Of a stretch of 64,000 bases of DNA, positions 55,880 to 64,000 are shown one piece after another. The position numbers were made by a program, and so were the translations under genes. How positions within the stretch are numbered: position 1 is the stretch's first letter; the number at the start of each line of letters is the position of its first letter. Source of the stretch: Bacteroidota bacterium (GTDB lineage Bacteria > Bacteroidota > Bacteroidia > Bacteroidales > SZUA-534); NCBI GenBank assembly GCA_003250355.1, contig QKGS01000040.1:2812-66811 (forward strand), given 5' to 3'. A model generated the notes under the pieces. It did not search any database. It was not told the origin of the DNA and saw nothing but the letters and a program-made list of their open reading frames with translations.

Positions 55880-57230
55880 ATTTCTTAAGCTTATTGTAAA
55901 GTGTCTGGCGTGTAACTCCTAGTTGTTTTGCCGCAAGGCTCAAATTCCCGTCATGCTTTTCTATGGAATCATTTATAAGTTGTTTTTCCATTTCTTCAAG
56001 AGTAAGCGGCACATTTGAGCGTGTACTTCCTGTACTTTTAAAGAAAAAGCTATCGGGCGATATTGTATTTGAATCGCTCAGAATAACGGCCTTCTCTATA
56101 GTATGTTCAAGCTCACGGACATTGCCGGGCCAATGATATTTTTTTAACTTTTTAAGCGTCGCAGAACTAAGTTCACGGCAGTTTTTCATATACTTTGAGC
56201 AATACCTTTTCAGAAAATGGTGTGCCAGCAATTCAATATCATCCTCCCTATCTCTTAAAGGTGGCAGCTCTACGTTTATTGTATTTATCCTGTACAAAAG
56301 GTCTTCGCGGAAACGGTTTTCTGCTATCATTTTATCAATATCGCAGTTTGTTGCAGTTATCAGGCGGATATCTACTGGTATTTCCTTATTGGAACCTACC
56401 GGAGTTATGGTTCTGGTTTGCAATGCAACCAACAGTTTCGACTGCACTGACAACGGAATATTTCCCAACTCATCTAAAAACAGTGTCCCTTTATGAGCAA
56501 GCTGAAACTTACCTACTCTGTCTTCACGGGCATCGGTAAATGCCCCTTTTTTATGACCGAATAGTTCGCTTTCAATAAGTGTTTCAGGTAATGCGCTCAC
56601 ATCAACAGTTACAAGCAGCTCATTGGCTCTGAGCGACTGACGGTGAATTTCACGGGCTATTACCTCCTTGCCCGTTCCGTTTTCACCGGTTATCAGAATA
56701 TTGGCATCGGTTTTTGCAACTTTACTTACAAGCTGCTTTATTTTCAGCATTGAGGGCGAACTGCCAATAAGTATCTGCGATTCTTTATTTATCTCTTTTC
56801 TAAGCGATTTTTCTTTCGTCTCCAGCTCGCTCACTTTCTTGTTGCTCATTCTTAGCTTCAGTGCCGAATTGAGTGTTGCAATAAGTTTGCTGTTGTCCCA
56901 TGGTTTGAGTACAAAATCGCAAGCTCCCTCTTTTAAAGCTTTTACGGCAAGTTCCACATCGCCATAGGCTGTAAATAATACTACTTCTATGGTTTTGTCG
57001 TATTTTTTTATCTCGTTGAGCCAGAATATCCCTTCATTTCCGTTAGCCATTCCGGCCGTATAGTTCATATCGAGCAATACAACATCAATGCTGTTGGTTT
57101 GCAGTGTTGAAACCAATGTTTTAGGATTGTTCAAAGTGATTATTTCTTCAAACTCATCTTGTAAAAGAAGGTCAAGTGCATTCAGCACATTCTTTTTGTC
57201 ATCTACTATTAATACAGTACCCTTTGCCAT
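55869..57230 (-). CDS. Sigma54-dependent NtrC-family response regulator
   Basis: REC (LLDMN), GENGTGKE, GAFTDA, FLDE, WPGNVREL, Fis-type HTH. Confidence 0.96.
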   Translation of the reverse strand: MAKGTVLIVDDKKNVLNALDLLLQDEFEEIITLNNPKTLVSTLQTNSIDVVLLDMNYTAGMANGNEGIFWLNEIKKYDKTIEVVLFTAYGDVELAVKALKEGACDFVLKPWDNSKLIATLNSALKLRMSNKKVSELETKEKSLRKEINKESQILIGSSPSMLKIKQLVSKVAKTDANILITGENGTGKEVIAREIHRQSLRANELLVTVDVSALPETLIESELFGHKKGAFTDAREDRVGKFQLAHKGTLFLDELGNIPLSVQSKLLVALQTRTITPVGSNKEIPVDIRLITATNCDIDKMIAENRFREDLLYRINTINVELPPLRDREDDIELLAHHFLKRYCSKYMKNCRELSSATLKKLKKYHWPGNVRELEHTIEKAVILSDSNTISPDSFFFKSTGSTRSNVPLTLEEMEKQLINDSIEKHDGNLSLAAKQLGVTRQTLYNKLKKYDV

Positions 57231-57239
57231 TTTAAATAT

Positions 57240-57335
57240 GGTTGAAAGGTTCAGGGTGGCAGGGTTTCAGGGTGGAAAACTCAATACAAAAATACTTCAA
57301 ACCCTGTTTCCTTGTTACCATGCTACCATGTAACC
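57240..57335. repeat. Inverted pair of degenerate 8-mer (RGGTNNCA) arrays
   Basis: GGT-type array 57240-57277 and complementary ACC-type array 57301-57335. Confidence 0.7.
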
Positions 57336-57383
57336 TTAATTGTTTTTCAAAATTACAACTCAAGCTTAAATCTTCCTCGCTTG

Positions 57384-57493
57384 TGTTAAAATATTTTACA
57401 CAAAAGTGTATAATGTTTTTACATTTTTCAAAAAACCACAATTGCTATCTAGTTGATTATATGATTATTATAGTTTTGGCACAGGGGTTGAAT
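57384..57493 (+). promoter_or_regulatory. Sigma54 promoter of the tolC operon with paired activator sites
   Basis: TGTTAAAATATTTTACA (57384-57400), TGTATAATGTTTTTACA (57407-57423), TGGCACAGGGGTTGAAT (57477-57493). Confidence 0.78.
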
Positions 57494-57520
57494 AAATTTT
57501 AACGAGTTTAGATTTAAAAT

Positions 57521-57638
57521 TCACCCTCCTTACCTTCCCGAAGTAAATTCGGGACAGGCTCCTCAAGGTAGGACTGTTCCAATTAAGCAGAAATGCAAAA
57601 TCGGAGGATGTGTCCCCTTGAGGGGACTATATGGGTGA
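57521..57638 (-). repeat. TIR-less copy of the MITE core palindromic element, with a 25-bp hairpin insertion
   Basis: Reverse complement matches 1790-1881 (TCACCC...TCCCCTCAAGGGGA...AATTGGAACAGTCCT.CCTTGAGG...GGAGGGTGA). Confidence 0.8.
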
Positions 57639-57662
57639 AAAACTTTATACTGAATAAATAAA

Positions 57663-58991
57663 ATGAAAATAACATTCTTCATAGTATTTTTTGGATTGCT
57701 GATACAATCTGCATTTAGTTCTGAACCTATGGGGTGGGAACAATGTGTTCAATACGCATTGGAAAACAGTTATGAGATTCGGGAGCAAAAACTGAATGTA
57801 GATAATCAGCAACTTAGTGTGAATTCTGCTTATTATAACTATTTGCCGGGAGTGTATGGTTATTCAAATTACAACAAAAATTACGGACGTTCAATTGACC
57901 CGCAAACAAACGCAATAGCAAACAGCGACTATTTCGATGCAAATTACGGACTGAATGGTAGTCTTGGGTTATTTGAGGGTTTTACCCGTATAAATAAAGT
58001 GAAGTACGAAAAGTATATTCATGAATACAACAAGTCGAGCCTTGAAGCAAGCCGTGTTAACATTACTTTCACTGTTATTGATAATTATATAAAAGTGCTG
58101 TTTTTTACCGGCATTAGCGAAATAGCTCTTGAGCAAATTAATATATCGAACAGGCTTTTACATAAGCAAAAAGAGATGTTGCGTTTAGGTCGTATTTCTG
58201 AAACTGATATAAATGAAACAGAAGCTCAGCTTGCACTCGACAGCCTTAGTTATATCAGGTATGACATGAATAAGCAAACATCGGTTAATTCACTTAAACA
58301 GGTTATGAATTTTCCGGTATCGGACACTTTGCTTCTGGCTGAAAACACAACTAATACCGGCATAATTTCAGATACCGATTATACTTTTAAAAATATTATG
58401 GTTCAGGCTGAAGAGCATTTGCCTGAGATAAATATGCTTAAAAACCGGTTAAATGCTACAAATGCAAGACTTGCAGAAGCAAAGGGTTCAATCCTGCCTA
58501 CATTAACGCTTAACTCAAACTGGGGCTCGGCATATTATCAGACTACAAGAGATTCGCTTGGCAATACGCTTGGTTTCGGCAATCAGTTCGATGGTAACCA
58601 AAGTACACGCATAAGCCTGAATCTGTATATCCCCATTTTTAACCGTCTGCATAACAGAACAAATATTCAGAAAGCAAAAATTGATAAGGACCTTGCGGAA
58701 AATTATTATGAAAAAGAATATTCGAAAATTCAATACGGCATTCATGAAAATGCCCTGCTGCTGGAGTCGGCTATAAAGCAGTATCAATCGGCTATGAAGA
58801 GTGAAGAGAAACAGCTTACGGCATTTAAAGCAGGTGAGAAAAAACTTGAAACAGGATTAATAAATACAATAGATTTTTATACACTTAAAAATGAATATGC
58901 CCGCTCAAAAGCTGAAAGGCTCAGGGCAGGAATGGAAATGTTTTTACAATATAAAACAGTGCAGTATTATTTGACTGGAACAATTTTATAA
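57663..58991 (+). CDS. TolC family outer-membrane efflux protein
   Basis: C.QYALEN, YLP....S...YGRSIDP, LF.GF, LPTL, IPIFNR. Confidence 0.92.
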   Translation: MKITFFIVFFGLLIQSAFSSEPMGWEQCVQYALENSYEIREQKLNVDNQQLSVNSAYYNYLPGVYGYSNYNKNYGRSIDPQTNAIANSDYFDANYGLNGSLGLFEGFTRINKVKYEKYIHEYNKSSLEASRVNITFTVIDNYIKVLFFTGISEIALEQINISNRLLHKQKEMLRLGRISETDINETEAQLALDSLSYIRYDMNKQTSVNSLKQVMNFPVSDTLLLAENTTNTGIISDTDYTFKNIMVQAEEHLPEINMLKNRLNATNARLAEAKGSILPTLTLNSNWGSAYYQTTRDSLGNTLGFGNQFDGNQSTRISLNLYIPIFNRLHNRTNIQKAKIDKDLAENYYEKEYSKIQYGIHENALLLESAIKQYQSAMKSEEKQLTAFKAGEKKLETGLINTIDFYTLKNEYARSKAERLRAGMEMFLQYKTVQYYLTGTIL

Positions 58992-59146
58992 GGTGACAGG
59001 GTAACAAGGTGGCAGGGTTACTGAACTAGATACAATAATTTAATTGATAAGAAACATAGAAATAAACAGGCAGGAAGATACATGGATAAAAGGTCGAATA
59101 TAGATATACTACCTTGAAACCCTGATACCTTTCTACCATTCAACCT
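58992..59146. repeat. Inverted pair of degenerate 8-mer arrays between tolC and the adaptor gene
   Basis: GGTGACAG GGTAACAA GGTGGCAG GGTTAC (58992-59021) and ACCTTGAA ACCCTGAT ACCTTTCT ACCATTCA ACCT (59111-59146). Confidence 0.7.
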
Positions 59147-59153
59147 CGATATT

Positions 59154-60410
59154 ATGGGAATGGACAGAATTATAGAAGATAAAAGGCTGATAAAACCAAA
59201 GCACTGGCGATATATAATTATCGGGGCAATAGTGCTTGCAAGCAGTCTGTTTTTAATGCTAAGAAACCCTGTGAGTGTTTACAAAACAGAACTCAACAGG
59301 TTAAGTATTGATAACGTAACAGGGGGTGAGTTCCATGAATTTATTACCGTAACAGGCGAGGTTGAACCTATCACAAGTATTTATCTCGATGCTGTGGAAG
59401 GCGGACGCGTAGAGGAAATATTCATTGAGGAAGGTGCTATGCTTAAAAAGGGTGATGTTATTCTTCGCCTGCACAATCAGGATTTGAAAATGAATATTAT
59501 GAACAGCGAATCGAGCCTTGCTTACCAGTCGAATGAGCTGCGCAATACTCTTATTCAAATGGAACAACAGAAAATTCAGAATAAACGTGAGCTGCTTCGC
59601 ATTGATTATGAGCTTGTACGATTGAAAAGGAAGTTCGACCAGAATAAAGAACTATATAATGATAAACTGATATCACGTGAAGAATATCTGGTATCGGAAG
59701 AGGACTATTTACTTGCAAAAGAGAACCGTGATCTGGCATTTCTGAAAATGACTCAGGACTCAATATTCCGCTCGAACCAAAAGGACCAAATGGATGAAAA
59801 CCTGAGAAGCATGCAGCAAAGTTTACGCATGGTTCGTGAACGACTTGAAAACCTCAACGTAAAAGCTCCTTTCGACGGACAGCTTGGCTTACTTAACGCC
59901 GAACTTGGTGAAGCGATTAATAAAGGACAGAGAATTGGTCAGATTAACATTCTTGAGTCGTTCAAAGTAAAAGCTGAAATTGACGAACACTATATTGATA
60001 AGATACGCCAAGGGTTGACTGGCTATTTCGAACGTCAGCAAGATACTTTTAACCTGAGACTTAAAAAGCAGTATCCTGAAGTACGCGACGGCCGATTTGA
60101 AATTGACCTTGTATTTACCGGAGAGCAGCCTGAGAAAATCAGAATCGGTCAGACATACAATATTAAACTGGAACTGGGACAACCTAAGCAAGCAGTAATG
60201 ATTCCTCGCGGGGGTTTCTTTCAAGCTACCGGCGGACAATGGATATTCGTTGTTGACCCTTCCGGAACATTTGCTGAAAAGCGTAATATAAAAATAGGTC
60301 GTCAGAACCCGAAATATTACGAAGTAATAAGCGGACTGGAACCGGGTGAAAAAGTAATAACATCAAACTATGAAATGTTCGGAGAGAATGAGAGGATAGT
60401 GTTTAAATAA
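59154..60410 (+). CDS. Efflux periplasmic adaptor (HlyD/MFP family)
   Basis: EGGRVEEIF.EEG...KGD, coiled coil, KAPFDGQ, EVISGL.PGEKVI. Confidence 0.93.
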   Translation: MGMDRIIEDKRLIKPKHWRYIIIGAIVLASSLFLMLRNPVSVYKTELNRLSIDNVTGGEFHEFITVTGEVEPITSIYLDAVEGGRVEEIFIEEGAMLKKGDVILRLHNQDLKMNIMNSESSLAYQSNELRNTLIQMEQQKIQNKRELLRIDYELVRLKRKFDQNKELYNDKLISREEYLVSEEDYLLAKENRDLAFLKMTQDSIFRSNQKDQMDENLRSMQQSLRMVRERLENLNVKAPFDGQLGLLNAELGEAINKGQRIGQINILESFKVKAEIDEHYIDKIRQGLTGYFERQQDTFNLRLKKQYPEVRDGRFEIDLVFTGEQPEKIRIGQTYNIKLELGQPKQAVMIPRGGFFQATGGQWIFVVDPSGTFAEKRNIKIGRQNPKYYEVISGLEPGEKVITSNYEMFGENERIVFK

Positions 60411-60411
60411 T

Positions 60412-60899
60412 GGAGACCGGAACATGGAAACCGGAGACAGGATTGAATAATATTGTATTTTGAGCCTACAATATTATTCATTTAAATAAAATTATAATTA
60501 TGGGTTCAAAGATTGAAAAATTTGAAGATTTAACTGTTTGGCAAGAAGCAATGGATTTAGCAGAAATGGTATATAAAGCTATGAAAAACTGTAAGGATTA
60601 CGGATTTCGAGACCAGATACAGCGTTCATCGGTATCTGTGCCATCAAATATTGCTGAAGGTTTTGACAGGCAAACTAACAAAGAGTTTATACAATTCCTA
60701 TATATAGCTAAAGGTTCATGTTCTGAATTAAGAACACAACTATATTTAGCCAAACGATTTGAATATATTAATGAGAATGAAATTCCGGCATTAATTGAAT
60801 TATCAAAAAAGGTATCATCAATGCTGTTCAAACTAATAAATGTCAGGAAAGAAAGATTCAGTTAAAAATCCGGTCTCCGGTTTCCTTATTCCGGTTTCC
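60412..60899. mobile_element. Putative cassette: four-helix-bundle gene bounded by 31-bp inverted heptamer arrays
   Basis: GGAGACC GGAACAT GGAAACC GGAGACA GGA (60412-60442) matches the reverse complement of 60869-60899 at 27/31. Perfect 14-bp hairpin at 60444-60480. Confidence 0.6.
60500..60865 (+). CDS. Four-helix-bundle protein (23S rRNA IVS / S23-like, TIGR02436 type)
   Basis: FEDL.VWQ.A..L, DQI.RSSVS.PSNIAEG..R, FL.IAKGS..EL.TQL. Confidence 0.92.
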   Translation: MGSKIEKFEDLTVWQEAMDLAEMVYKAMKNCKDYGFRDQIQRSSVSVPSNIAEGFDRQTNKEFIQFLYIAKGSCSELRTQLYLAKRFEYINENEIPALIELSKKVSSMLFKLINVRKERFS

Positions 60900-60915
60900 G
60901 CTTAATTAGAAAGAT

Positions 60916-61611
60916 ATGATTAAAACAAAAAATCTTACCAAAGTATTCCGTACAGAGGAAGTTGAGACTTCGGCTCTGGATAACGTGAATTTTGAAGTGA
61001 AAAAAGGAGAATTTGTAGCAATTATGGGACCTTCGGGTTGTGGTAAATCTACACTCATGAATATCCTTGGATTACTTGATAACCCTTCTGCGGGTGAGTA
61101 TTTTTTCGATGGTGTTGATGTATCAACATACAAAGAGAGTAAGCGTACCGGGTTGCGCAAAGGAAACATCGGTTTTGTATTCCAGAGCTTTAACCTGATA
61201 GATGAACTGAATGTGTATGAAAACATTGAGCTTCCTCTCATTTACCTGAAAATGTCGGCACGTGAGCGTAAGGAAAAAGTAGAAGCTATAATGGAGCGAA
61301 TGCAGATAGGGCATCGTAAGAAGCACTTCCCTCAACAACTTTCGGGTGGTCAGCAGCAACGTGTGGCTCTTTGTCGTGCAGTAGTTGCAAACCCTAAGCT
61401 TATACTTGCCGATGAGCCTACCGGTAACCTCGATTCTAAAAATGGTATTGAGGTAATGAACCTGCTAAAGGAACTTAACAAAGAAGGTACAACCATAGTA
61501 ATGGTAACTCACAGTAAGCGCGATGCTGAATTTGCACACCGTGTAGTTAACCTGCTCGATGGGCAGATTGTAACTGAGAATATTCAGAGTGTACTTGATG
61601 CGGTGATTTAG
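60916..61611 (+). CDS. ABC transporter ATP-binding protein (LolD/MacB type)
   Basis: GPSGCGKST, FQSFNL, LSGGQQQRVA, ADEPTGNLD. Confidence 0.96.
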   Translation: MIKTKNLTKVFRTEEVETSALDNVNFEVKKGEFVAIMGPSGCGKSTLMNILGLLDNPSAGEYFFDGVDVSTYKESKRTGLRKGNIGFVFQSFNLIDELNVYENIELPLIYLKMSARERKEKVEAIMERMQIGHRKKHFPQQLSGGQQQRVALCRAVVANPKLILADEPTGNLDSKNGIEVMNLLKELNKEGTTIVMVTHSKRDAEFAHRVVNLLDGQIVTENIQSVLDAVI

Positions 61612-61795
61612 GTGCAAAGGGTACAGGGTTACAGGGTAGCAGGGTTTCAAGGTGGAAAGGCTGAAGGGTAGAAGGGTAGAAAGGAGACCGAAGACTGGAA
61701 AAAGTAGACAGTATGCAGTATTTTATTATTTAAAGTGAACTAAAGTGATTAGAGTTTTATGTGGAAATATGAGAATGAAGGAATTTGAAAATGGA
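61611..61795 (+). repeat. Stacked short tandem-repeat arrays (8-, 7-, 7-, 9/10-mers)
   Basis: RGGTNNCA-type array 61611-61684; GGAGACC/GAAGACT 61683-61700; AGTAGAC/AGTATGC 61703-61720; TAAAGTGAAC/TAAAGTGAT from 61731. Confidence 0.65.
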
Positions 61796-61865
61796 GTTTT
61801 AGAAAATATATCCAAATATTTAATTATCAATATTGAGTTAGATAAAAGAGAGTAGTTTCAATAAA

Positions 61866-61908
61866 GCCCCAAAGGGGCGTAAGCAATAGCCCGGGGTGAA
61901 GCCCCGGG
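61866..61908. repeat. GC-rich double-hairpin REP-like element
   Basis: GCCCC-AAA-GGGGC and CCCGGGG-TGAAG-CCCCGGG in an AT-rich spacer. Confidence 0.55.
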
Positions 61909-62027
61909 ATAAAAACGGAGAATAAATATCGTCGCAAGCAATGAAGATTATTTGAAAATCAACAGATATCATGCGACGAAATAAAAAACGAAACATCAGG
62001 TTTTATTCCAATACGCTACCGCACGAG

Positions 62028-62206
62028 CAATGTCGTTAAGTTAAGGAATTCACCCCTATAATTATTCCCTTTGGTCATGAGTTCGCTACGCTCAGTTCCC
62101 TCAAGGGGATACAGCTCCGATGTAGCAGAGCTGCTAAGTTCGAAGGAGTCCTCCCTTGAGGGAGGTTAGGAGGGTGACTTTTTAAATGCTTAACGTAATG
62201 ACATTT
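62028..62206. mobile_element. MITE with IS4-type TIRs (copy 2), inserted in a REP-like element
   Basis: CAATGTCGTTAAGTTAAG ... CTTAACGTAATGACATTT; flanking 10-mers ACCGCACGAG / ATCGCACGAT; same core as copy 1. Confidence 0.82.
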
Positions 62207-62301
62207 ATCGCACGATTGTATCGTATGGTGAGGGCTAATGCCACAAGAGAGGACTCGTGCGGCAGCTATGAAAAAAATTAAAAACAATAAACCGAAATAC
62301 T

Positions 62302-64000
62302 ATGAACCATAATCTGAAAATAGCATTCCGAAATGCAAAGAAGAACGGTATTATCACCTATGCCAAACTGTTTGGTCTTGCGCTATCATTTGCAATAGCA
62401 ATATTTGCAGCGGTATACGCATGGTACGAGAAGAGCTTCGACAGCTTTGTTCCAGATAAGGATAAAATATACCGCGTTTATACCGAGGGGGTATTTCAGG
62501 ATGTAAATACATTTGATGTAGTGGTAACATCTCCTGTTTTAGCAGACTTTTTGAAATTACAGGTATCGGAAATTAAAGAAACCATGCGTGTAACCGAATG
62601 GGGAGCCGGTGATATTCGGTTTGAGGAGAAATTCTTTCAGGATGTTGAATTCCTGTATGTTGACTCAAACTTCTTCACATTTATGGGAATGGAGTACAGA
62701 ACGAATCTTGAGAATCCGTTCGAATCGAAAAACTACATAGCCTTATCGGAAAGCATGGCAATAAAGGTTTTCGGCACCACAGAAAACATACTCGATACTG
62801 AGGTAAAATTCCGTGGCAATCCGGTTACCATCTCTGCCATTTATAAAGATTTTCCTAAGAACAGTCACCTGCAATATCCGGTTCTGACATCAATAAACAA
62901 TTTCGGGTTTATTAATGCCGGATTCAATAACAATGTTCTGTTTACATATCTGAAAACTAAGTCGACGAATGTTGACAACAACGAACTTGACTTTAAAATT
63001 ACAAAAGCATTGTTTTCAAGTGTCGAAAGTCCGGTTGATGCTGAAAATGCCCAAACAATGGAAGACCTTATGTTCGACAATGTAAATTATACACGCTTTA
63101 GAGCCGAACCATTACAGGACATTCACTTTAGCAGCCACAGATACGACTGCGCAATAACTTCAAACAAAACTTACGTAAATGGCGCTATAATTCTGGCAAT
63201 ATTCGTTCTGCTGATTTCATCAATCAACTACCTGAACCTTACTATTGCCGGTATTTCAACACGTATGAAAGAGATAGCCGTTAAAAAATCGAACGGAGCA
63301 TTTAACCGCACTATTTTCAGTCAGTTTATAACCGAAACGTTCATATTTTGGTTCGTAGGAATAACAATAGCATACATACTTCTCATATTGTTTGCAAAAC
63401 CATTTGAAAACTATCTCGGTTTTGAAATAAACATTAACGGAATTACCATGATAAAACTTATGGCAGTAGCATTCTTATTGTTATTCATTTTCAACTTAAT
63501 AATGAATGTGTTGCCACTGGTATTTATTTCACGTAAAAATGTTCTGAATCTGCTTAAAGATGAAAGTGCTGCAGCAAATAAAGTATCGTTACGCGGAGTG
63601 TTTGTATTCCTGCAGTTTGTATTCTCAGGCATGATAATTCTTGGGGCAATTTCGGTTAATAAACAAATAAACTATATGCTTAACGCTGACCGCGGATACG
63701 ACCCTAGCAATCTGGTTTACGTAAATATGTGGGGACTTGGCGAAACCCGTCTTGCCAGTTTTCTTGACGAAATGAATAATATGCCTGCAATTGAAAGTGC
63801 TACTGCGTGTCAGGAAGTATTCGGACGAGAAACACGTACCGATGGAGCCAGATATAAGGAAGCTGAGGAAAATGACTTCTTCGGATGTGCGGTACTTGAA
63901 GTTGATGAAAACTTCTTCAATACTCTCGATATTGAATTTACCGAAGGTCGCGGATTCGATAAAAACCTTGAAACGGACCTTGATAACTCTATTATAGTGA
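62302..64000 (+). CDS. MacB/FtsX-like ABC transporter permease, runs off the right edge
   Basis: Not in the ORF track. Manual translation MNHNLKIAFRNAKKNGIITYAKLFGLALSFAIAIFAAVYAWYEKSFD..., later INYLNL...RMKEIAVKKSNGA. Confidence 0.88.
   Translation, partial: MNHNLKIAFRNAKKNGIITYAKLFGLALSFAIAIFAAVYAWYEKSFDSFVPDKDKIYRVYTEGVFQDVNTFDVVVTSPVLADFLKLQVSEIKETMRVTEWGAGDIRFEEKFFQDVEFLYVDSNFFTFMGMEYRTNLENPFESKNYIALSESMAIKVFGTTENILDTEVKFRGNPVTISAIYKDFPKNSHLQYPVLTSINNFGFINAGFNNNVLFTYLKTKSTNVDNNELDFKITKALFSSVESPVDAENAQTMEDLMFDNVNYTRFRAEPLQDIHFSSHRYDCAITSNKTYVNGAIILAIFVLLISSINYLNLTIAGISTRMKEIAVKKSNGAFNRTIFSQFITETFIFWFVGITIAYILLILFAKPFENYLGFEININGITMIKLMAVAFLLLFIFNLIMNVLPLVFISRKNVLNLLKDESAAANKVSLRGVFVFLQFVFSGMIILGAISVNKQINYMLNADRGYDPSNLVYVNMWGLGETRLASFLDEMNNMPAIESATACQEVFGRETRTDGARYKEAEENDFFGCAVLEVDENFFNTLDIEFTEGRGFDKNLETDLDNSIIV

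Follow-up and report, generated by a model that had tools for sequence, protein, structure and literature searches.

A Four-Helix-Bundle Gene Between Inverted Heptamer Arrays: A Candidate Transposase-Free Cassette in an ABC Exporter Operon of Bacteroidota

Introduction

Genes of the S23p/PF05635 family have been described as components of intervening sequences (IVSs) of 23S rRNA. In Coxiella burnetii, the IVS located in helix 45 contains such a gene together with a 28-bp terminal stem and tandem heptamers and is excised by RNase III, and its ORF is reported to be decaying and probably untranslated (PMC4990558). For Avd, the accessory protein of DGRs, it was reported that five protomers grip an RNA stem-loop and that the protein is required by its reverse transcriptase (RT) (bioRxiv 10.1101/2023.10.23.563531). 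Short tandem units are also known from intergenic regions, such as the convergent GGGAATC heptamer pairs in Xanthomonas (PMC4692102) and the TAACTGA repeats of Beggiatoaceae, Cyanobacteria, and Bacteroidetes, which are placed before starts or, reversed, after stops (PMC4679880). These intergenic heptamer repeats are reported to be over-represented, with no mechanism known (PMC4692102, PMC4679880). The main texts of both articles contain neither "four helix" nor "intervening," and in a further article such genes are merely listed in a table (PMC5524665). A linkage of a PF05635-type gene to inverted heptamer arms in mRNA operons was not encountered in the literature covered, which consisted mainly of open-access main texts.

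PF05635 is a large family without an assigned function. Several classes of mobile DNA are relevant for comparison. Insertion sequences and MITEs as well as REP-RAYT systems have terminal inverted repeats, occupy intergenic sites, and produce derivatives without a gene that spread through the genome. Homing endonuclease alleles and replacement hot spots are characterized by alternative inserts at a fixed site with short linked flanks, and the integron gene cassette is defined by a single downstream attC site and the integron integrase.

Here, we analyze a PF05635-type gene in a stretch of 64,000 nucleotides (the window) from a Bacteroidota bacterium. The gene is enclosed by two inverted arrays of heptamers (the arms), and gene and arms together are referred to as the cassette, which is an IVS-type gene with inverted ends outside rRNA. 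The window locus is one of many examples, and its value lies in a junction that exists in three states and in the tests that it provides against a reading at the RNA level.

The Cassette in the Exporter Operon

The operon has the MacAB-TolC-type order TolC-adaptor-ATPase-permease, and the cassette lies at the adaptor/ATPase junction (Table 1). A preliminary description, made from the letters of the window, had already recognized that the gene interrupts this junction and that arrays inverted at 27/31 positions begin 1 bp past the upstream stop codon; both observations hold, and the same pair of arms, taken 2 nt longer, comprises 33 nt on each side with 29/33 complementary positions plus one G·U pair. 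A single nucleotide lies between the adaptor stop and the left arm, and the distance from the right arm to the ATPase ATG is 16 nt. Bacteroidota are not known to use a Shine-Dalgarno sequence for translation initiation, and the segments ahead of both start codons are the likely initiation regions. The GC content of the four-helix gene is 31% (GC3 24%) vs. 40–41% (GC3 37–39%) in both neighbors.

Table 1. Features of the window locus, family copies of the host genome, and copies of the AAA-ATPase/PD-(D/E)XK gene. Plain positions refer to the window; C and L numbers denote contigs and loci.
Feature	Position	Strand	Basis
Upstream host gene, periplasmic adaptor (MacA/DarC-like), ABC exporter operon	59154..60410	+	profile matches
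Left arm, G-rich heptamer array GGAGACC GGAACAT GGAAACC GGAGACA GGATT	60412..60444	+	sequence
Perfect 14-bp AT-rich hairpin, 9-nt loop (60444-60457 / 60467-60480)	60444..60480	+	sequence
A/T-rich stretch ahead of start codon, likely translation-initiation region of four-helix gene	60481..60499	+	inference
Four-helix-bundle gene, 121 aa, PF05635/TIGR02436	60500..60865	+	profile matches, model
Right arm, C-rich heptamer array, reverse complement of left arm at 29/33	60867..60899	+	sequence
16-nt spacer, likely initiation region of ATPase gene	60900..60915	+	inference
Downstream host gene, ABC ATPase (MacB/DarD/LolD-like)	60916..61611	+	profile matches
Gene-less inverted 8-mer array pair (about 58990-59021 and 59111-59145), fills TolC/adaptor junction	58990..59145	+	
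Solo G-rich array, flush with ATPase stop: 8-mer units, then GGAGACC-type units	61610..61711	+	
Gene-less inverted 8-mer array pair, just 5' of divergent response-regulator gene start	57240..57337	.	
Family copy of the window, GGARACC unit, adaptor/ATPase			
Family copy in moxR/DUF58, GTTRCAR unit			neighbor names read from translations
Family copy 3' of restriction methylase gene, AGGTAAA unit			neighbor name read from translation
Family copy in hisA/hisF, AT-rich unit	C96		neighbor names read from translations
Broken family copy in cobU/cobT, 8-mer arms kept, two internal stops	C70:48372-48596		neighbor names read from translations
AAA/PDDEXK copies at contig ends (examples)	C4:1-1082, C22:1-753, C29:1-700, C76:1-1460, C102:1-865		
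AAA/PDDEXK copy without arrays	L110:1260-2830		

In line with the preliminary description, neither a transposase within the cassette sequence nor a target duplication is visible at the window locus, where the empty alleles are too diverged to fix the ends or to exclude a short duplication. An HUH (Y1) transposase is present neither in the unit nor in its neighbors, Rfam yielded no match within the cassette, and no rRNA match occurs in 57000–62500. No terminator was found, and sigma-70 matches stayed at chance level in a scan that did not include Bacteroidota promoters.

The perfect 14-bp hairpin ahead of the start codon is present as previously described. It has no clear counterpart in any of ten same-site relatives folded (judged by eye), three of which show weaker stems (−11 to −12 kcal/mol) formed in part by the arm. 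The hairpin is therefore probably a local accident; a role as a conserved end signal was rejected on this ground.

Within the exporter operon, arrays follow four consecutive genes. The gene-less pair filling the TolC/adaptor junction is built from the unit type that forms the arms of an alternative cassette in the relatives G013 and G019, described below. In the ATPase/permease gap, REP-like elements and arrays occupy common junctions: a weak match to Acido-Lenti-1 (RF01687; 61865–61908, minus strand), below the gathering score, lies beside a hairpin repeat of high multi-contig depth (about 62029–62205). A CCCTCC...GAGGG-type hairpin repeat 5' of the TolC gene (57550–57640) resembles one near 62140–62180.

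The Four-Helix Protein

The assignment to the PF05635 family given in the preliminary description is borne out by profile scores of 131.9 bits for PF05635 (cut-off 33.8) and 123.7 bits for TIGR02436 (cut-off 24). The structure model (pLDDT 96) consists of four long helices and matches XCC0516 (2GSC) with a TM score of 0.87 and an rmsd of 1.0 Å as well as BT_0352 (2RLD). The structural relation to Avd, also proposed earlier, is recovered from the model (4DWL; TM 0.78, rmsd 1.8 Å, 12% identity), and at the level of sequence no match to Avd was obtained at E ≤ 1. The entries of the closest solved relatives, 2GSC and 2RLD, comprise five chains each, and pentamers have been described for 2GSC and Avd; from the latter two we infer that the window protein may form an Avd-like ring or pentamer, and by analogy with Avd it likely binds its own array unit. 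The gene is under purifying selection, with dN/dS values of 0.075–0.17 in the three unsaturated pairs out of seven, the other four pairs being saturated. For the window protein neither a nuclease family nor a nuclease fold was matched. PADLOC gave no match for any of the four proteins checked and thus no support for an anti-phage role.

Family Members and Arrays in the Host Genome

Five family members are encoded in the host genome, each inside an operon, between protein genes, and co-oriented with its neighbors, and they possess five different array units, all inverted (Table 1). The preliminary description would have been weakened by family members lacking such arrays; the other four do carry inverted arrays, with the caveat that the AT-rich arm pair in hisA/hisF failed the shuffle test, from which the broken C70 copy was left out. 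As the five copies are mutually unrelated (detected identity 35% or less), the cassette has not multiplied recently in this genome, and as they use five different units, the unit is not set by the host. The broken C70 gene, with its 8-mer arms retained, is an intermediate of decay.

Arrays are far more numerous than four-helix genes. Arrays of period 7 occur 125 times vs. 3 in the shuffled genome and those of period 8 occur 22 times vs. 0; the heptamer family of the window is abundant elsewhere without a four-helix gene, and solo arms are common. Using a crude gene caller, G-rich arrays were found no more than 15 nt past the stop at 64 of 1,357 co-directional junctions (C-rich arrays 8; shuffle 1.2) and C-rich arrays ahead of starts at 47 of 1,357. 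With only two consecutive G residues, GGARACC is a poor quadruplex candidate. A scan for genes between inverted arrays, based on the same kind of crude gene calling, picked up two genes each of the four-helix and GxxExxY types as well as several host genes, which merely sit between arrays of neighboring junctions.

Both GxxExxY genes of the host genome (C97:42015-42389 and C98:765-1136) are bracketed by inverted arms of about 9-nt units. Moreover, gene-less composite hairpins with a common fixed spacer occur at C57:1240-1392, C94:1689-1889, C99:243-520, and C22:604-753. On the other strand, the spacer reads as a GGAGACC array and an A-rich stretch that lead to an ATG and a few codons ahead of the opposite array. 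It could represent what is left of a deleted cassette gene, spreading as a miniature element.

The Junction in Relatives and in Congeners

The comparison of the junction across relatives that the preliminary description had proposed reveals both presence and absence of the gene. Among 29 ATPase loci examined, 19 have the adaptor adjoining the ATPase; four of these junctions are full (window included), six have gaps of 59 nt or less, and nine are gene-less, with 131–183 nt in eight and 409 nt of other sequence in one. The cleanest empty allele, in the relative G008, measures 11 nt from stop to start, so that the stable synteny without empty alleles that would have spoken against mobility is not what is found. 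Remnants of arrays, or a different hairpin, are often present in the gene-less junctions of 131–183 nt. Upon loss of the gene, one arm or both are often retained. Among the GTDB relatives, 11 of 79 are located at the adaptor/ATPase junction, and they belong to several Bacteroidales families.

The history of this junction was followed in trees of hosts and proteins. A starred clade of seven operons in the host tree contains the GGARAC cassette once, an 8-mer cassette twice (G013/G019), and no gene in four operons. The 8-mer cassettes carry a divergent four-helix protein, which is 53–56% identical to that of the GGARAC cassettes at a host identity of 81–82%, a host distance at which GGARAC pairs are 65% identical. 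Three operons with an adaptor only 40–41% identical to that of the window carry a 63–65% identical cassette. In the protein tree, which omits five loci with an internal stop or fewer than 100 aa (L033, L059, L069, L074, L097), the same-site proteins fall into three groups, with four changes on the tree, and one origin for all 13 of them is not rejected by the AU test (p = 0.089); protein and host distances at the adaptor/ATPase site correlate with rho = 0.53. Given these two values, an old insertion followed by losses, with one faster lineage, is possible at the window junction. Allele replacement at this junction is likely, though not proven, and its independent occupation is suggested by the tree rather than established.

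Some loci display variant layouts: in L010/L125 (G019), L087, and L074, the order is left-gene-left-right, or the whole hairpin is present on both sides. Such layouts are expected if genes enter and leave by recombination within arrays.

As the host genome has no congener, four other four-helix cassettes were compared in the sister genus g4, each junction with five genomes in which the flanks are 82–97% identical (congeners 83–97%). All four junctions vary, and at least two different cassettes are found at three of them. At the araA junction, six genomes (L151, L181–L185) show five states, with cargo from two unrelated families: one four-helix cassette, four GxxExxY alleles representing three different cassettes, each with its own arms, and one empty allele with a gap of 8 nt. 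At the second junction, two distinct four-helix cassettes occur, two genomes are empty with gaps of 5 and 11 nt, and in two more the allele combines another insert with the remnant of one arm. At the third, two different four-helix cassettes are found next to four genomes with another gene order and array remnants, and the fourth is full in one genome and empty in five. No target duplication is visible at any of the congener junctions.

At the araA junction, the first 30 nt (9–10 codons) of the downstream gene track the cassette and not the host. Two genomes with a common cassette are 100% identical near the insert vs. 82–90% distally, and close genomes with different alleles are 67% identical near it vs. 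96–98% distally. This linked-flank effect, which concerns these other cassettes of genus g4 and not the window junction, is clear at one junction and weaker at the other three, the differences there being found mostly in the last codons of the upstream gene. Alternative cassettes at one junction of the congeners carry 10–30 nt of the neighboring host genes with them. Ordinary RecA recombination cannot split the last ~25–30 nt from an insert. Short linked flanks are expected from homing and equally from ordinary RecA recombination beside the insert.

In one cassette-bearing allele (L133, G045:C53), the upstream gene has lost its usual last codons, reads through the left arm, and gains about 20 residues; in the best-aligned pairs, identity to the empty alleles is about 65% over its last 90 nt vs. 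84–90% further up.

Gene and Arms as One Unit Across Loci

Significant inverted arms are present in 58 of 79 relatives and absent from 21, L100 having been left out for its short flank; in the wider family set, without L140 and L156, the arms are significant in 79 of 109. Across 2,841 non-syntenic pairs, the arm 5-mer similarity amounts to 0.27 above 60% protein identity, 0.09 at 50–60%, and 0.04 below 50% (Mantel p = 0.001). Since unit labels are common to kin, this correlation reveals co-travel and not recognition. The match between a left and a right arm is better within a locus than across loci (29.4 vs. 24.3, p = 1e-4, 24 loci), and hence the two arms change in concert.

GGARAC-type arms cluster in one branch of 36 rows (support 88/89, not starred) that spans Bacteroidota, Calditrichota, Fidelibacterota, KSB1, and Aminicenantes. 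According to a survey of 51 neighbor frames at 28 loci, most of this branch resides in MacB-type ABC operons, at four or more different junctions (adaptor/ATPase, ATPase/ATPase, after ATPase, and permease/permease), and other sites are udk/tdk, thiolase, aminomutase, and EngA operons. The array starts within 10 nt of the upstream stop at 36 of the 45 loci where both could be placed. Gene and arm type evidently travel together between unrelated sites and phyla.

RNA Stem or DNA Arms

The preliminary description had proposed that the ends of the cassette pair and loop it out of the operon transcript. In such an mRNA intervening sequence, the arms would be kept for pairing, RNase III would cut the stem, and the flanking stop and start would be joined or processed apart. 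The stem is strong and can physically form: the fold of the 516-nt region reaches −128.9 kcal/mol (z = −5.25; none of 100 shuffles was as good), and the arm duplex by itself contributes −50.4 kcal/mol. In the 3.7-Mb genome, the best partner of each arm is the other arm (29/33), the next-best partners matching at 26 positions for the left and 28 for the right arm. The host genome encodes RNase III, all five family copies are co-oriented with their neighbors, and looping out would leave 17 nt from stop to start, a distance similar to that in the empty G008 allele (11 nt). The Coxiella 23S IVS, with the same gene family, a 28-bp stem, heptamers, and RNase III cleavage, offers a precedent (PMC4990558).

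If the arms were selected as an mRNA stem, however, G·U mismatches on the sense strand should exceed A·C mismatches. No excess is seen, with 79 G·U vs. 81 A·C in 58 arm pairs and 15 vs. 27 in 14 gene-less pairs, as opposed to 45 vs. 10 in 99 terminator-like control hairpins, in a test that is diluted by ambiguous array register and whose signal could be erased by copying between arms even where the RNA stem matters. The duplexes of the sense and the antisense strand do not differ in stability (26/29/3), and G-rich arrays lie past stops as often at convergent gene ends (26 of 552) as at co-directional ones (64 of 1,357), 4.7% each; the frequency of solo arms points in the same direction. In addition, cutting without ligation would sever the message, and the halves of a cut rRNA stay assembled, unlike those of an mRNA. 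Loop-out from mRNA as the purpose of the arms is thus not supported, and we regard this explanation as unlikely. The results speak against this purpose and not against formation of the stem, which RNase III may cut.

A different RNA-based route would be retro-mobility in trans, in which arm-bounded RNA is released, the Avd-like protein recruits an RT from elsewhere, and a copy is inserted at arrays. The fold match to Avd (4DWL, TM 0.78, rmsd 1.8 Å), the binding of an RNA stem-loop by Avd and its necessity for the RT (bioRxiv 10.1101/2023.10.23.563531), and a gene that is apparently promoterless and always in sense with its neighbors would agree with it. Of 28 family genomes, only 12 yielded an RT, and none was found in G002, G024, and G046, which hold 10–15 cassette genes (all figures from drafts), and a resident RT is therefore unsupported as a requirement. 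The only RT found in the host genome (PF00078, E = 5e-41, C11:230-892) is located near a contig end on another contig than the window, the identity to Avd is 12%, and GxxExxY genes, which have no Avd fold, use the same design. Retro-mobility is accordingly a very improbable explanation.

Vertical Inheritance

The four-helix gene could also be an old, vertically inherited accessory gene of ABC exporters that is often lost, with arrays that are slippage repeats of the host and a protein that acts as RNA-binding regulator of the operon. The adaptor/ATPase junction is common to several Bacteroidales families, the clade of the protein is mostly found in MacB-type operons, one origin is not rejected (AU p = 0.089), purifying selection is strong, and many heptamer arrays occur where the gene is absent (125 vs. 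3 in the shuffle). Vertical descent is difficult to reconcile, however, with five copies in one genome that have five units, with units that follow the protein across phyla and unrelated operons, and with junctions whose content differs among congeners that are 83–97% identical, and there is little to recommend it.

Candidate Mobilizing Enzymes

No enzyme that moves the cassette was identified when RT and AAA/PDDEXK genes were followed across relatives. The host genome contains about 18–19 copies of an AAA-ATPase/PD-(D/E)XK gene (PF09820+PF08011), which are 90–100% identical and break the assembly at 38 contig ends. Judged by eye, the 3' ends of about 16 of 19 copies are flush at heptamer or octamer arrays, and the 5' ends of 8 of 18 are preceded by arrays of the window's own unit, of the TCCGGTCTCC type. 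The composite arrays flanking these copies are directly oriented on the two sides, and they are mosaics built from several units. The expansion looks recent, the gene either riding on arrays or spreading them, and it links arrays to recent movement in the host genome. PF08011 occurs in 7 of 27 relatives with 1–2 copies each (0–2 overall) and was not found in G002, G004, and G011, which hold 13–15 four-helix genes; as it is absent from the relatives richest in cassettes, the AAA-ATPase/PDDEXK_9 gene was rejected as a general mobilizer. For this reason, it is hardly probable that the cassette is a non-autonomous passenger of a PD-(D/E)XK-type nuclease (GxxExxY or AAA-ATPase/PDDEXK_9) that cuts at arrays or empty junctions, with repair copying the cassette in as in homing, even though GxxExxY and four-helix cassettes alternate at one congener junction with homing-like short linked flanks and the host copies abut arrays as counted above.

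A Model for the Cassette

The reading that we prefer, with a probability of about one half, is that the gene and its two inverted arrays are one optional unit, likely a promoterless, transposase-free mobile cassette whose arms are likely DNA recombination sites rather than an RNA stem. The other suggestion of the preliminary description, a novel mobile cassette, is upheld in this form by the three-state junction and by arms that follow the protein across unrelated sites; the low GC content of the gene agrees with it. At occupied junctions, homologous recombination of the host, acting through the flanking genes, would exchange alleles among related genomes while the last ~30 nt stay linked, and such swapping is supported in congeners. 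To get to new junctions, the arms would recombine with resident gene-less arrays past stop codons that have the same unit; this second route, which we infer, would explain the hopping among junctions of MacB-type operons. Insertion past a stop codon and ahead of an initiation region, where the host promoter drives its expression, would let the cassette survive. In the weakest step of the model, an Avd-like ring might bind its own arm sequence and help the arms to pair or recombine.

If gene and arms are an exchangeable unit, the function of PF05635 and the heptamer repeats become testable with one 490-nt cassette, a 14-kDa protein, and a defined 7-mer, and operon junctions would be slots for transposase-free elements able to rewrite the last and first codons of host genes. 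More tentatively, and with the odds against it, the cassettes may belong to an undescribed cross-phylum class of enzyme-free mobile cassettes. In this class, each small protein (Avd-like ring or GxxExxY nuclease fold) would recognize and propagate its own 7–8-nt unit and seed arrays past stops as landing pads, junctions would be slots for competing cassettes, and other genes, e.g., the 18-copy AAA-PDDEXK gene, would ride on the arrays. Such a class would explain the excess of intergenic heptamer repeats and make rRNA IVSs and the Avd of DGRs special cases of one element.

Comparison With Known Systems

Mobile DNA elements share single traits with the cassette. Like insertion sequences, MITEs, and REP-RAYT systems, it has terminal inverted repeats, an intergenic site, and gene-less derivatives that spread; in contrast to them, it has no transposase and no visible target duplication, its ends consist of a varying number of tandem units, the allele takes host codons with it, and its one conserved ORF does not encode a transposase. 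With homing alleles it shares alternative inserts at one junction; the short linked flanks seen for other cassettes in congeners would equally result from ordinary recombination next to an insert. Its four-helix cargo has neither a nuclease fold nor a PADLOC match. It differs from the integron cassette by tandem arrays on both sides instead of a single downstream attC.

The heptamers of Xanthomonas and Beggiatoaceae resemble the arms in having 7-nt units in intergenic position with the G-rich strands inward and in lying just ahead of starts or, reversed, just past stops (PMC4692102, PMC4679880), but in the cassette the unit goes with a particular protein clade and encloses a gene. The four-helix fold is common to the DGR protein Avd (TM 0.78; PMC10053308, bioRxiv 10.1101/2023.10.23.563531); unlike in a DGR, no RT, template, or variable repeat is located nearby, and the neighbors are transporter genes. 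The ORF-bearing 23S rRNA IVSs of Coxiella and Leptospira correspond to the cassette in gene family, in length (about 430–490 nt), in a terminal inverted repeat of ~30 bp, in heptamers in tandem on the 5' side, and in sporadic distribution (PMC4990558). The cassette differs from them by its place between protein genes and not in rRNA and by arms without an RNA-wobble signature, and from the Coxiella ORF, which is reported to be decaying (PMC4990558), by purifying selection on the gene. The cassette design is widespread and apparently undescribed, and its nearest described element is the ORF-bearing IVS of 23S rRNA.
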